Positions 12,745-29,509 of a DNA stretch of 64,000 bases are shown here, piece by piece. The notes under the pieces were generated by a model, which saw only the letters and a program-made list of their open reading frames with translations, did no database searches and was not told the DNA's origin. Every line of letters starts with the position of its first letter. Positions within the stretch are counted from its first letter, which is position 1. The position numbers and the translations under genes are program-made. This DNA is from a virus: the IMG/VR virus record IMGVR_UViG_3300001335_000085, positions 1,365-65,364 of that record; one strand, written 5' to 3'.

Positions 12745-12814
12745 GCGGATAAGTGTAACGGTTGCATTTCGGTCTCATAAGCCGAAGGTAGGGGGTTCGA
12801 CTCCCCTGTCCGCT
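12745..12814 (+). tRNA. tRNA-Met(CAT) (could be Ile2)
   Basis: Acceptor GCGGATA/TGTCCGC, anticodon arm TTCGGT-CTCATAA-GCCGAA region, T arm GGGG-TTCGACT-CCCC. Confidence 0.85.
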
Positions 12815-12890
12815 AGATGCTGGATAGCTACCAGATGAACTACAGGGATTTCGAGGGAACTGTAGAGAGATTGTATAAACGCTCGACCAA

Positions 12891-12968
12891 GGGGCATAAC
12901 AGGTTTCGATTACTAATAAGTCCTGCAAAGGAATTAGTAAGAGCAGGGTTCGATTCCCTGATGCTCCA
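12891..12968 (+). ncRNA. tmRNA tRNA-like-domain-only RNA (no mRNA-like domain)
   Basis: GGGGCAT/ATGCTCC-A acceptor with G3.U70, stemless D loop AACAGGTTTCGA, TTACTAAT/ATTAGTAA helix capped by TCCT-GCAA-AGGA, T arm CAGGG-TTCGATT-CCCTG. Confidence 0.75.
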
Positions 12969-12975
12969 AAAAGAC

Positions 12976-13004
12976 TTGACATTAGTTTTAGAATAGTGTA
13001 GTAT
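12976..13004 (+). promoter_or_regulatory. sigma70-type promoter
   Basis: TTGACA-17-TAGTAT. Confidence 0.7.
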
Positions 13005-13022: not shown

Positions 13023-13325
13023 ATGAATTGTAAGCAGGAATTTGAAAATGAAGTTAATGGAAAACAAGTTTTGTGTGCAAAAATACTTCATGATGACTGG
13101 GATGATGGTGCTTGTGAATATTTTTTGCCTAGAAACTATTCACCTGCTATGTATAATACTTTTATCGAGAGTCTAGATTTTTCTTATTATGCGGGATATG
13201 GTGTGCAGGAAATCTATGGATATATTTGGTATGTAGACGGTACATGGAGTGAACGTTCTGAATATGATGGAAGTGAGAATTGGGATTTCAGAGAATGTCC
13301 AGCAATACCAGAGGAATTACGATAG
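13023..13325 (+). CDS. hypothetical phage protein
   Basis: AAGGAG RBS; G.IWY.DGTWSER.EYDGSE.W motif. Confidence 0.75.
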   Translation: MNCKQEFENEVNGKQVLCAKILHDDWDDGACEYFLPRNYSPAMYNTFIESLDFSYYAGYGVQEIYGYIWYVDGTWSERSEYDGSENWDFRECPAIPEELR

Positions 13326-16225: not shown

Positions 16226-16381
16226 TGGAACGTGGTGGAATTGGTAGACACAAGGTAGAATAGTGGATAGGGTGAACAGTGGTGAACTGGGGCTATCCTA
16301 AAGTGACAGGGCACACAACCGGTTTATGTGACTCTATGTCAGCCTAAACATCCATTGTGGGTTCGACTCCCACCGTTCCAA
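16226..16381 (+). ncRNA. tRNA-shaped RNA 1 with about 100-nt insert replacing the anticodon arm
   Basis: Acceptor TGGAACG/CGTTCCA, D arm GTG-GAATTGGTAGA-CAC, T arm GTGGG-TTCGACT-CCCAC. Confidence 0.75.
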
Positions 16382-16382
16382 T

Positions 16383-16555
16383 AGCACAGTGGTGGAATAG
16401 GTAGACACTACGTGGGTAGATGTTGAAGTGAGGGGACACTGCACCGTACCGAGGCGACAGAAACAACACAAACAGAACCGATGTGATGTTGTGAAACAGC
16501 CCAAGAAAGTATCGGATACCAACATTATGCAGGGTGCAAATCCTTGCCTGTGCTT
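16383..16555 (+). ncRNA. tRNA-shaped RNA 2 with about 120-nt insert replacing the anticodon arm
   Basis: Acceptor AGCACAG/CTGTGCT, D arm GTG-GAATAGGTAGA-CAC, T arm GCAGGG-TGCAAAT-CCTTGC. Confidence 0.7.
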
Positions 16556-16913: not shown

Positions 16914-16997
16914 AGAAGGATGTCCGAGTGGTTTAAGGAGACAGATTGCTAATCTGTTGGTGCTTGCATCACGTGGGTTCGAATCCCACTCCTTCTG
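16914..16997 (+). tRNA. tRNA-Ser(GCT)
   Basis: AGAAGGA/TCCTTCT, ACAGA-TTGCTAA-TCTGT, long variable arm, G73. Confidence 0.92.
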
Positions 16998-25118: not shown

Positions 25119-25640
25119 ATGTTACTATGCATTAGTGGAAAGAAATGGTCAGGAAAGGATACAGTAGCTAATTATCTATGTAATTATTGTGGGTTTACAA
25201 AAGCACCCCCATTTGCTGTGTTTAAGTATGCAATAGCTTCATGGTTTGATTGGGATGAACAAGCTTTGCAAGCAATAGGTAATGAATGTCTTAAAGAAGA
25301 TTTAGGAAGACACTTACCAGTGTATAAAGAGACTGTAGGTGATGCTATCTGGGTAAAAGTATTTAGAAATTGGTATGCTAAGCAAGACCCTGATGAGTGT
25401 TTTGTTGTGAGTGACTTCAGATTTCCTATAGAGGCTCAGGAGCTGGCAGTCTTTGATGATGTGATATATGTACAAGTACGGCGTGAACAAGACACTACAG
25501 AGGATTCTCATCAGTCTGAGAGTTATTTTGATGAGCTACCACAAGACTACGCTATTGAAAACAATGGAACTTTGGAAGATTTATATAATACAGTAGATGT
25601 ATTGATTGACACAGTATTATGTAATTTGGAGTTGATGTGA
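25119..25640 (+). CDS. deoxynucleoside monophosphate kinase
   Basis: ISGKKWSGKDT, VVSD.RFP.E, H.SE, I.N.GT.EDL. Confidence 0.88.
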   Translation: MLLCISGKKWSGKDTVANYLCNYCGFTKAPPFAVFKYAIASWFDWDEQALQAIGNECLKEDLGRHLPVYKETVGDAIWVKVFRNWYAKQDPDECFVVSDFRFPIEAQELAVFDDVIYVQVRREQDTTEDSHQSESYFDELPQDYAIENNGTLEDLYNTVDVLIDTVLCNLELM

Positions 25641-26839
25641 AAGTATACGGTAAATATGGTGAGGTTGTCATATATAATGATGTAGTAGATAGTAATGTTG
25701 TTGAGCAGGTAGCAACCTTAATGAATCATCCCATGGCGCAAGATGCTCATATACGCATCATGCCTGATTGTTGTGCAGGAAAAGGCTGTGTGATAGGTTA
25801 CACGGCAAAAATACGTGATTATATTGTTCCTAATTTAGTAGGAGTAGATATTGGCTGTAGTGTTTCAGCTATGTCTATTAATCATCTTGACATACCTGCA
25901 TTCAATGAAAGATTTAAGAAATTAGTGCCTGTGGGTAGAAATATTCATGAAACTCCTGTATATGAGATATCTGATCTTGCTGTAAGAAATATGGAGAATT
26001 TTGAGATAGTATGTGATGCTATTGGCATGGATAAAGACTATATGAAGCGGTCTTTAGGTACATTAGGTGGTGGCAATCACTATGGTGAGATAGATGTAGA
26101 TAGCAACGGTGATTGGTGGTTTACTCTTCATACAGGCTCTAGAAACTTTGGATTGAAAGTTGCAACATATTTTCAGAAGAAAGCTATGGAAGTTGATTTT
26201 TCTAAAGAAATAGAGGATATCAAGAAAAACTATTCTGGAAAAGACATTGAAACAAATATTAAACAACTGGACAAAAAGAGAAAACCAAAAGGACTAGAAT
26301 GGCTAGAAGATGCTGATGAGGAAAATTATCTAAATTTTATGGATGTTGCACAAGAATACGCAAAGGCTAATCATGACATAATTCATAAAAGATTGTTTTC
26401 TGAGGATGAACGTAGATTTATTACTATCAGCTATTATACGAAAGGTGTAAAACGATATTATATATCACATAATTATATTGACATATGGGATTATATTGTA
26501 AGAAAAGGAGCAGTATCTGCAAAAAGGGAAGAAGAAATTTTGATTCCTCTGAATATGAAAGATGGTATATTGCTATGTAAGGGAAAAGGAAATCCAGACT
26601 GGAATTTCTCAGCCCCTCATGGAGCAGGAAGATTGATGTCAAGAACAAAGGCTAAAGAAGAATTTACATTAGAAGAGTTTGAGAAGTCTATGGAAGGAAT
26701 TTATTCAACCTGTGTATCTGAGAACACCCTTGATGAGTCCCCGATGGCATATAAAGATGCAGAGGATATCAAACGATATATCACACCTACAGCAGATATT
26801 CTAGACCATTGGAAGCCAATATGGAATTATAAAGGATAG
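25637..26839 (+). CDS. rtcB: RtcB RNA 2',3'-cyclic-phosphate ligase
   Basis: IMPDC, VGVDIGC, GTLGGGNHY.E, HTGSR, HNY, RKGA, PHGAGR, DE.P.AYK. Confidence 0.93.
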   Translation: MKVYGKYGEVVIYNDVVDSNVVEQVATLMNHPMAQDAHIRIMPDCCAGKGCVIGYTAKIRDYIVPNLVGVDIGCSVSAMSINHLDIPAFNERFKKLVPVGRNIHETPVYEISDLAVRNMENFEIVCDAIGMDKDYMKRSLGTLGGGNHYGEIDVDSNGDWWFTLHTGSRNFGLKVATYFQKKAMEVDFSKEIEDIKKNYSGKDIETNIKQLDKKRKPKGLEWLEDADEENYLNFMDVAQEYAKANHDIIHKRLFSEDERRFITISYYTKGVKRYYISHNYIDIWDYIVRKGAVSAKREEEILIPLNMKDGILLCKGKGNPDWNFSAPHGAGRLMSRTKAKEEFTLEEFEKSMEGIYSTCVSENTLDESPMAYKDAEDIKRYITPTADILDHWKPIWNYKG

Positions 26840-28210: not shown

Positions 28211-29509
28211 ATGAAATTACCAGAGAAATATGCATTTATTGAAATGCACGATGAGCTAGAGCAAGTATTAGATGCTATTGTTAATACACGTGAAAACTTG
28301 TGTATACTAGGGGCGGCAGGGTGCGGTAAAAGTTTAACGATAAAATTGTTATCTGATAAAGCAGTATATAACCATGAGACTATTGTGGCATGCCCTACAG
28401 GAATCGCTGCAATCAACGCAAGTAGTGAAGGTGTACGTGCGCAGACACTTCATAGTCTATTCAAACTACCACCACTCGGTGTGATACCTGTGGATAAACT
28501 GAATGTACATGATTTCTATAAAGAAATGTTCAACGCATTAGATACGTTAATTATTGATGAGATTTCTATGGTCAATAGTGATATGCTCACTAAAGTAGAT
28601 TTTTTGTTAAAGCAGTATAGAAATGGGAGACCTGTCCGTTATATCGTATTTGGGGATTTAAGTCAGTTAGCTCCTGTTGTGTCTACTCCAGAAGAGAAGA
28701 CATATTTAAATGATGCATATGGTAGCAGGTTCTTTTTTGACACAGATATATACAAAACCATGAGATTGATACAGTTGACTAAAATATTCAGACAGAAAGA
28801 CCCTGTGTTCAAAGAAGTGTTGAATAAAATACGATTTAAGACACAATCTGAAGAAGATTTACAGTATCTTAATACTAGGGTTGTAGATGTTGAGGAATTT
28901 AGAAGTAAATCATTTGTATACATAGCCTTGACAAACGCAACAGTAAACATGATTAACAATCGTGAATTGTATCTTAATAGTAATCCTACAGTTAGTTACC
29001 ATGGAGAGGCTAAATATTATAAAGACAGCGATAAACTTGTACCACAAAAGTTAGATTTGAAAGTAGGAACACAAGTGATGATGGTAGCAAATAATCATCA
29101 GGCTGGATACTATAATGGGCAGTTGGGTATTATAAAGAGATTACACAAAGATAAGATTATTGTAGAGAGTGATAATGTAGAATACGAAGTAGAACCATAT
29201 ACATGGCAGAAATATGCATACCAGTATGATAGAAGTACAAAGCATATACAAGCTGATGTGATAGGTACATATAAACAATTTCCTATCAAAATGGGATATG
29301 CTATTACAAGTCATAAAGCGCAGGGATTGACATTAGAACGAGTATATTTAGATTTAGAGAAGCGTACATTTGCATCAGGGCAGTTATATACAGCATTAAG
29401 TAGAGTGACAACACTAGAAGGGCTGGGGCTTGCAAGGAAGATTACAGCAAAGGATAATATGCTAAGTCCACAGATTAGAAAGTTCTATAAAAAGTATAAA
29501 ATAGATTGA
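28211..29509 (+). CDS. Pif1/RecD-like SF1B helicase
   Basis: GAAGCGKS, PTGIAA, IIDEISM, FGD.SQL.PV, L...FRQ, AIT.HKAQG.TL, GQLY.ALSR. Confidence 0.92.
   Translation: MKLPEKYAFIEMHDELEQVLDAIVNTRENLCILGAAGCGKSLTIKLLSDKAVYNHETIVACPTGIAAINASSEGVRAQTLHSLFKLPPLGVIPVDKLNVHDFYKEMFNALDTLIIDEISMVNSDMLTKVDFLLKQYRNGRPVRYIVFGDLSQLAPVVSTPEEKTYLNDAYGSRFFFDTDIYKTMRLIQLTKIFRQKDPVFKEVLNKIRFKTQSEEDLQYLNTRVVDVEEFRSKSFVYIALTNATVNMINNRELYLNSNPTVSYHGEAKYYKDSDKLVPQKLDLKVGTQVMMVANNHQAGYYNGQLGIIKRLHKDKIIVESDNVEYEVEPYTWQKYAYQYDRSTKHIQADVIGTYKQFPIKMGYAITSHKAQGLTLERVYLDLEKRTFASGQLYTALSRVTTLEGLGLARKITAKDNMLSPQIRKFYKKYKID

Follow-up and report, generated by a model that had tools for sequence, protein, structure and literature searches.

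Trans-translation is the main bacterial ribosome-rescue and quality-control pathway and a drug target, and the tRNA-like domain (TLD) of tmRNA is the part bound by AlaRS, SmpB and EF-Tu. Whether phage RNAs reduced to this domain had been described was asked in the initial annotation of the locus reported here, and they have been: an entry 'Mycobacterium phage DS6A (TLD only)' is listed in the tmRNA database papers (PMC4131195; PMC11915505). A DS6A-like molecule, chargeable or not, was reported to inhibit tmRNA strongly in E. coli, perhaps by titration of SmpB (Mao et al. 2009, as cited in PMC4131195 and PMC11915505); the decoy concept is not new and is already in print for the DS6A type. In vitro, transfer of the growing peptide to a TLD-only tmRNA was also reported (Shimizu and Ueda 2006, as cited in PMC3895274). 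Phage tmRNA surveys rely on ARAGORN (PMC9004378), and no description of phage TLD-only RNAs was found in the literature beyond DS6A.

The RNA described here is encoded in a stretch of 64,000 nucleotides (hereafter the window) of an IMG/VR virus record of 85,009 bp, which is 100% complete according to CheckV. The sequence occurs only in DNA runs, from freshwater/aquatic metagenomes, and the genome encodes helicases, a primase, a DnaB-like helicase, a family-A DNA polymerase, a ribonucleotide reductase and RtcB. No close cultured relative of this phage was found; BLASTN of the RNA with its flanks against 50,697 phage records gave T-arm matches at the 3' end only and no close phage, and a search with the neighbouring primase as the query gave one distant contig, which is without a mini-tmRNA. 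The coordinates of the RNA elements and of the two genes referred to below are collected in Table 1.

Table 1. Elements of the mini-tmRNA and related genes (positions in the window).
Feature	Position	Strand	Basis
Mini-tmRNA gene (tRNA-like domain only; 78 nt; CCA not encoded)	12891-12968	+	Matches to Rfam tmRNA, R1 and R2
Acceptor 5' strand GGGGCAT	12891-12897	+	Pairs with 12961-12967 (7 pairs, the third being G3:U70)
Stemless D-loop analogue AACAGGTTTCGA (tmRNA GGaUUCGA motif)	12898-12909	+	Aligned to the Rfam tmRNA consensus and E. coli ssrA
P2a helix, 8 bp	12910-12917 / 12933-12940	+	Fold of the middle part; family covariation
5' bulge AAG	12918-12920	+	Counterpart of the tmRNA GAA bulge at the P2a/P2b junction
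P2b stub, 4-bp stem TCCT/AGGA	12921-12924 / 12929-12932	+	Fold of the middle part; inner-stem pairs covary in the family
GCAA (GNRA) tetraloop capping the P2b stub	12925-12928	+	Fold
Linker GAG between P2a 3' strand and T arm	5' of the T arm	+	Sequence
T arm CAGGG-TTCGATT-CCCTG	12944-12960	+	Matches to Rfam, R1 and R2; family covariation
Acceptor 3' strand ATGCTCC	12961-12967	+	Sequence
Discriminator A73 (A)	12968	+	Sequence
tRNA-Met(CAT)	12745-12814	+	ARAGORN; Rfam tRNA (43.9 bits); 76 nt upstream of the mini-tmRNA, same strand
RtcB RNA ligase	25637-26839	+	

The tmRNA-type ends, G3:U70, A73 and the stemless D loop claimed in the initial annotation were all found in place, and the RNA was matched end to end by the Rfam tmRNA model. 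The helix names (P2a, the GAA-type bulge and the P2b base) were assigned by aligning E. coli ssrA to this model, and the D-loop analogue is a stemless GGUUUCGA loop. The middle part folds as an 8-bp helix, an AAG bulge and a 4-bp stem capped by GCAA, in agreement with the earlier proposal that an 8-bp helix, a 3-nt bulge and a 4-bp GNRA-capped hairpin replace the pseudoknots and the tag ORF; the Rfam tmRNA consensus carries a 3-nt bulge, 'GAa', at the site of the AAG bulge. PK1, the tag template and PK2-4 are all replaced by the capped P2b stub, the RNA is without resume codon, tag reading frame, stop codon and pseudoknots, and no GCN...stop frame was found in it. The unconstrained minimum-free-energy fold of the whole 78 nt (z = -3.35) contained the acceptor and P2 helices and not the T arm, and the T arm was accepted on the basis of the family covariation given below. 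In comparison with the consensus, the first P2a pair is U:A instead of C:G, and the 3' linker is AGAG instead of GGAC.

With relaxed thresholds, the Rfam tmRNA model (RF00023) was matched over its whole span (positions 1-374), apart from a deletion of 306 central positions, at a score of 31 bits (E 6.5e-11, 401 nt searched), which is below the gathering cut-off of 47 bits. At the gathering thresholds Rfam returned only tRNAs in the window and no call at the mini-tmRNA, and ARAGORN called six tRNAs in the window and left the mini-tmRNA uncalled. A search with tmRNA and tRNA models had been proposed beforehand, and in it the tmRNA model matched and the tRNA model did not. The RNA does not classify as tRNA-Ala, since there was no ARAGORN call and the best match within the Rfam clan was to tmRNA. 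Of the characters of a canonical tmRNA, it has the tRNA-like domain with G3:U70, A73, the D-loop analogue and the T arm, and it lacks a gathering score and the mRNA-like domain with tag frame and pseudoknots. With the organellar and permuted models (RF02544 and RF04321), a 17-nt T-arm match to tmRNA_permuted was obtained (10.2 bits, E 6.4), lower matches being masked by clan competition. The RF00023 cut-off was missed by the window RNA and its nearest relative (L069) and was passed, at 51-81 bits, by 12 of the 13 other family members tested; 79 of the 82 family members were missed by ARAGORN.

Relatives were collected from IMG/VR by two pattern scans. The pattern of the first one was derived from the tmRNA consensus (GGGG, a GGNTTCGA loop, 20-50 nt and then the T loop, with the 3' strand left free), and at least 119 contigs were matched; a perfect 7-bp acceptor stem together with G3:U70 and A73 was present in 78 of the 93 distinct matches listed, and CCA was encoded in 29 of 81 relatives among the matches listed. 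In the pattern of the second one neither acceptor strand was fixed, and 71 distinct sequences were obtained among the matches listed. Within these 71, the acceptor stem was perfect over 7 bp in 70, pairs 1, 2 and 3 were G:C, G:C and G:U in 71, 70 and 70, respectively, A73 was present in all 71 without being fixed by the pattern, and acceptor pairs 4-6 varied with compensation. On this comparison, the charging marks G3:U70 and A73 are under selection.

Both scans together gave at least 137 distinct relatives, each of 63-86 nt and tag-less, which disposes of the possibility, raised in the initial annotation, that the homologues all bear a tag. A hidden tag ORF was also considered and rejected, since a GCN codon with an in-frame stop was present in 47 of 137 members, no more than the 51 +/- 5 obtained when the middle part was shuffled, and is absent from the window RNA. 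The subfamily of the window RNA, defined by GGTTTCGATT and the linker AGA, was found in 17 IMG/VR contigs; 11 of them were among the first scan's matches listed, so this listing covers roughly two in three of the contigs that fit the pattern. When 185,579 bacterial and archaeal species, each represented by one genome, were searched with the subfamily pattern, only 3 contigs were matched, and the element is thus essentially viral. The G+C content of the RNA ranges from 0.45 to 0.76 across the family, and the flanking genes of the relatives are unrelated to those of the window phage and mostly also to one another.

For the family assignment, two covariance models (R1 and R2) were used, the latter being built from 51 second-scan sequences with the window RNA and its subfamily left out. 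The window RNA scored 82.7 bits with R1 and 63.4 bits with R2 (E 7e-17 in 157 kb, positions 1-78 of 78, zero non-canonical pairs), and because R2 was built without the RNA or its subfamily, the assignment is independent of the search route. The RNA of DS6A scored 58.3 and 58.0 bits (positions 1-78 of 78 with R2), respectively. Weak matches of the R1/R2 type confined to the T arm were also recorded elsewhere in the window at 16357-16373 and 16971-16989 (+); the former sits in 16226-16555, marked earlier as giant anticodon-less tRNA-like RNAs, and the latter in a tRNA-Ser.

When 81 distinct sequences were aligned to R1, 96.1% of the cells were paired, against 64.4% after shuffling and 45-58% with the partner slid, and 490 cells were changed on both sides, against 142 in the shuffles; compensatory changes were found in all seven modelled P2a pairs and in three T-arm pairs. 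For 68 distinct sequences disjoint from the training set of R2, the respective values were 93.1%, 64.3% and 39-57% of cells paired and 435 against 130 cells changed on both sides, with compensatory changes in all four helices, the short inner stem (helix 3) included. Across the family, every T-arm cell was paired (100%), and 3-4 of the 5 pairs showed compensatory changes. The RNA structure is under selection across the family, and the window RNA and the DS6A RNA belong to one covarying family. The covariance-model search suggested in the initial annotation thereby yielded a family in which all four helices covary and to which the window RNA is assigned, and the covariation excludes a decaying relic.

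Within the family, an A-rich 5' bulge is the commonest form. In forms of 63-65 nt (L026, L029, L048, L067 and L084) P2a is closed directly by a loop of 3-4 nt with neither bulge nor P2b stub, and these two elements are therefore dispensable. A second, degenerate TLD-like element of about 60 nt was observed in the closest subfamily (L134:8173-8232, L137:3889-3948 (-) and L138:2329-2388 (-)), upstream of the mini-tmRNA and separated from it by between a few bases and about 110 nt; this element scored 31-32 bits with R1 and R2, its T arm being good and its acceptor stem poor, and the corresponding place in the window is taken by tRNA-Met. At two further loci, a Pistol ribozyme (L049:6093-6154 (-), 51.9 bits) and an EGFOA RNA (L047:5398-5503 (+), 61.6 bits) lie about 100 and 190 nt from the mini-tmRNAs, respectively, and these loci may be clusters of small structured RNAs.

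Copies also occur in cultured phages. The DS6A RNA lies at 28478-28557 of JN698994.1, between gp33 and gp34, and is unannotated in the record (found by R1 and R2). Unannotated mini-tmRNAs among tRNA genes were found in Stenotrophomonas phage Jojan60 (ON045087.1; L131:2992-3071) and in Streptomyces phages pSt2308 and LuckySocke (L140 and L142, both at 1491-1568). In Jojan60, four tRNA genes at L131:2286-2800 are annotated on the strand opposite to that of Rfam, on whose strand the tRNAs are co-oriented with the mini-tmRNA and the flanking CDSs, and the mini-tmRNA begins within a CDS annotated as 'hypothetical protein'.

The strand of the mini-tmRNA is that of all surrounding genes, and co-transcription with the upstream tRNA-Met is probable. 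CCA is encoded neither by the mini-tmRNA nor by any of the six tRNA genes of the window. No gene-specific promoter or terminator was found for the mini-tmRNA, nothing specific precedes the gene, and the structure of the spacer (12815-12890) was not unusual (z = 0.01); an adjacent antisense partner was likewise not found, there being only scattered 9-10-mers in the 64 kb. A strong sigma-70-like site (TTGACA, 17 nt, TAGTAT) lies at 12976-13004 (+), directly 3' of the mini-tmRNA and before ORF 13023-13325, the DNA of which shares about 69% identity with hypothetical genes from T5-like coliphages and from Salmonella phages.

A tRNA gene 76 nt upstream in a same-strand gene block is also what would be expected if the RNA were a structural or processing element only, that is, tRNA-like RNase P/Z punctuation in a polycistronic transcript, or else a functionless, decaying remnant. 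Across the family, tRNAs were found within 1 kb of 23 of the 82 loci (on the same strand in all but one), which fits such a role, and no tRNA was nearby in 56 of the 82, which does not. Punctuation would need neither G3:U70, A73 and the tmRNA-specific D-loop nor the P2a-bulge-P2b geometry, yet these are conserved in unrelated phages with a G+C content of 45-76%, and we consider this explanation highly improbable.

Searches of this complete genome gave no SmpB, tyrosine integrase, RF-1/ArfB-type factor or Pth, and SmpB was absent from the 45 other carrier records as well; in the carrier phages examined, any activity must therefore use the SmpB of the host. The missing integrase also bears on whether the 3' half of the gene is a mimic of an integration site, namely an attP for integration into host ssrA. 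tmRNA genes often serve as attB (PMC10865867), and a tyrosine integrase was present in 9 of the 45 carrier records, once about 270 nt from the mini-tmRNA (L106). On the other hand, 16 of the 21 complete carrier genomes have no tyrosine integrase, and an attP would need the 3' part only, yet conservation and covariation extend to the 5' strand, D-loop and P2a. This reading is scarcely credible and was rejected for the window phage, given the absence of a tyrosine integrase from the genome and the conserved 5' half. In L106 (IMGVR_UViG_3300044960_000145), a terminally repeated record of 34 kb, the mini-tmRNA and the tyrosine integrase lie at 517-595 and 66-251, respectively, and in some temperate phages the mini-tmRNA gene might also serve for attachment at the host ssrA gene.

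The neighbourhoods were also compared for a partner gene. Across 82 family loci no conserved neighbour gene was found, the recurrent neighbours being ordinary phage genes or unknowns. RtcB is encoded both by the window phage and by DS6A (gp76, JN698994.1 49300-50502), according to PMC11090510, RtcB acts on tmRNA more often than on any other target, and SmpB-like domains are present in CoCoNuT defence systems; by pure inference from these points, the RNA could act not on the rescue pathway but as a decoy for, or a target of, host defence or repair factors by which tmRNA-like RNA is recognised (for example, tmRNA/tRNA-cleaving nucleases or defence proteins with SmpB-like domains), with the phage RtcB repairing the damage. 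RtcB was found in only 3 of the 45 other carrier records (a count without a control rate), on which ground it was rejected as an obligate partner; with this count and with no conserved neighbour gene at the 82 loci, a defence-related role seems improbable.

The best-supported reading for the window RNA is competitive interference with host trans-translation. The SmpB/EF-Tu decoy put forward in the initial annotation is the same reading as that published for DS6A, the sole described phage example, and since both RNAs fall into one covarying family it may well extend to the present one. We estimate a probability of about 0.6 that the gene encodes a tag-less mini-tmRNA of the phage that competes with the host tmRNA and suppresses ssrA tagging in the infected cell. 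The mini-tmRNA would arise from a transcript of the early/replication gene block that also contains the upstream tRNA-Met, and would be excised by the tRNA-processing enzymes of the host, provided with CCA by the host and charged by the host AlaRS. It would then compete with the host tmRNA for the host SmpB and thereby for EF-Tu and for stalled ribosomes with an empty A site, so that ssrA tagging (trans-translation) would be suppressed in the infected cell. For the window RNA we infer each of these points, namely expression, processing, charging, SmpB binding and benefit to the phage.

How far the charged state matters divides this interference from a productive, tag-free rescue, in which the alanylated mini-tmRNA with host SmpB and EF-Tu would enter stalled ribosomes and take over the nascent chain; the template-less peptidyl-RNA would be resolved by drop-off and Pth or by a release factor, ribosomes would be freed, and one alanine would replace the degradation tag on phage proteins. 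The near-invariant G3:U70 and A73 in the pattern-independent sample (matches listed) suggest that charging matters, peptidyl transfer to a TLD-only tmRNA takes place in vitro (as cited in PMC3895274), and organellar tmRNAs without a coding sequence are found together with SmpB and presumably assist when mRNAs are incomplete (PMC11915505). Release would nevertheless depend wholly on host factors, since no Pth, RF-1/ArfB-type release factor or SmpB is encoded in the genome, and the only experiment on record, as described in PMC4131195, showed inhibition that was independent of charging. We regard such a rescue as rather unlikely. Set against an inhibition reported to have no need of charging, the near-invariance of G3:U70 and A73 fits an alanylated RNA that enters the ribosome better than a passive SmpB sponge. 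On a more speculative and rather unlikely reading, this near-invariance in more than 130 phage mini-tmRNAs would mean that the RNAs must be charged and enter the ribosome, as a widespread counter-measure turning 'tag and destroy' into tag-free release. If so, one or several alanines would be added, phage proteins would be protected and ribosomes would be recycled, rather than SmpB being merely soaked up, and the message breaks could come from anti-phage RNases.

If competition with the host tmRNA is the function, a minimal natural RNA is carried by phages of many hosts to interfere with trans-translation, which would indicate that this pathway matters during infection, and the mini-tmRNA would be a ready-made inhibitor scaffold. 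The window adds a divergent subfamily of low G+C that is missed by the Rfam threshold and by ARAGORN, and such genes stay unannotated. The unannotated copies in Jojan60, LuckySocke, pSt2308 and DS6A provide tractable phage-host pairs for distinguishing a sponge from a charged ribosome substrate.

In comparison with canonical tmRNA (RF00023, E. coli ssrA), the window RNA keeps all universally conserved nucleotides and helices of the tRNA-like domain (P1, the D-loop analogue, the P2a-bulge-P2b base and the T arm), whereas PK1, the resume codon, the tag ORF, the stop codon and PK2-PK4 are gone (306 of 374 model positions); since the mRNA-like part is missing, it cannot template a degradation tag or normal termination. 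The full-length tmRNA of the crAss-like phage cr7_1 was tried as a further comparison and set aside, its gene being permuted. With tRNA-Ala the window RNA shares the identity set of G3:U70 and A73 and the T arm, and it differs in having neither D stem nor anticodon stem-loop. The CDS-less organellar tmRNAs (jakobid and oomycete mitochondria; plastid genes of about 65 bp in Mallomonadaceae; PMC11915505) are likewise natural derivatives consisting of the tRNA-like domain only, a likeness drawn by description, and are presumed to work with SmpB without tagging (PMC11915505); they are cellular, serve the translation of their own genome and are mostly permuted in mitochondria, whereas the window gene is viral and would act on the host SmpB. 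The engineered TLD-only tmRNAs (Shimizu and Ueda 2006, as cited in PMC3895274), with the acceptor and T arm, the D-loop and a loop-closed P2a, resemble it in the same parts; they are described there as laboratory constructs that accept the nascent peptide with SmpB and EF-Tu, and the window RNA additionally retains the bulge and the P2b base.

The closest counterpart is the RNA of DS6A, which is also phage-encoded, in one piece and about 80 nt long, with the G3:U70 and A73 acceptor stem, the D-loop analogue, the T arm, a P2a of 7-8 bp, an A-rich bulge and a short capped P2b stub, and without a tag frame; R2 aligns with each of the two RNAs over its full length (58.0 bits for DS6A and 63.4 bits for the window RNA), and both phages encode RtcB. 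The window phage is an 85-kb freshwater phage without integrase and DS6A a temperate actinophage, phage and host being unrelated, with a G+C content of 45% against 70%. DS6A keeps C:G as the first P2a pair where the window has U:A, its linker is GCAC against AGAG in the window and GGAC in the family consensus, and its D-loop carries the variant GGUGGUCGAC. The window RNA is a divergent new member of the DS6A-type family of phage RNAs.
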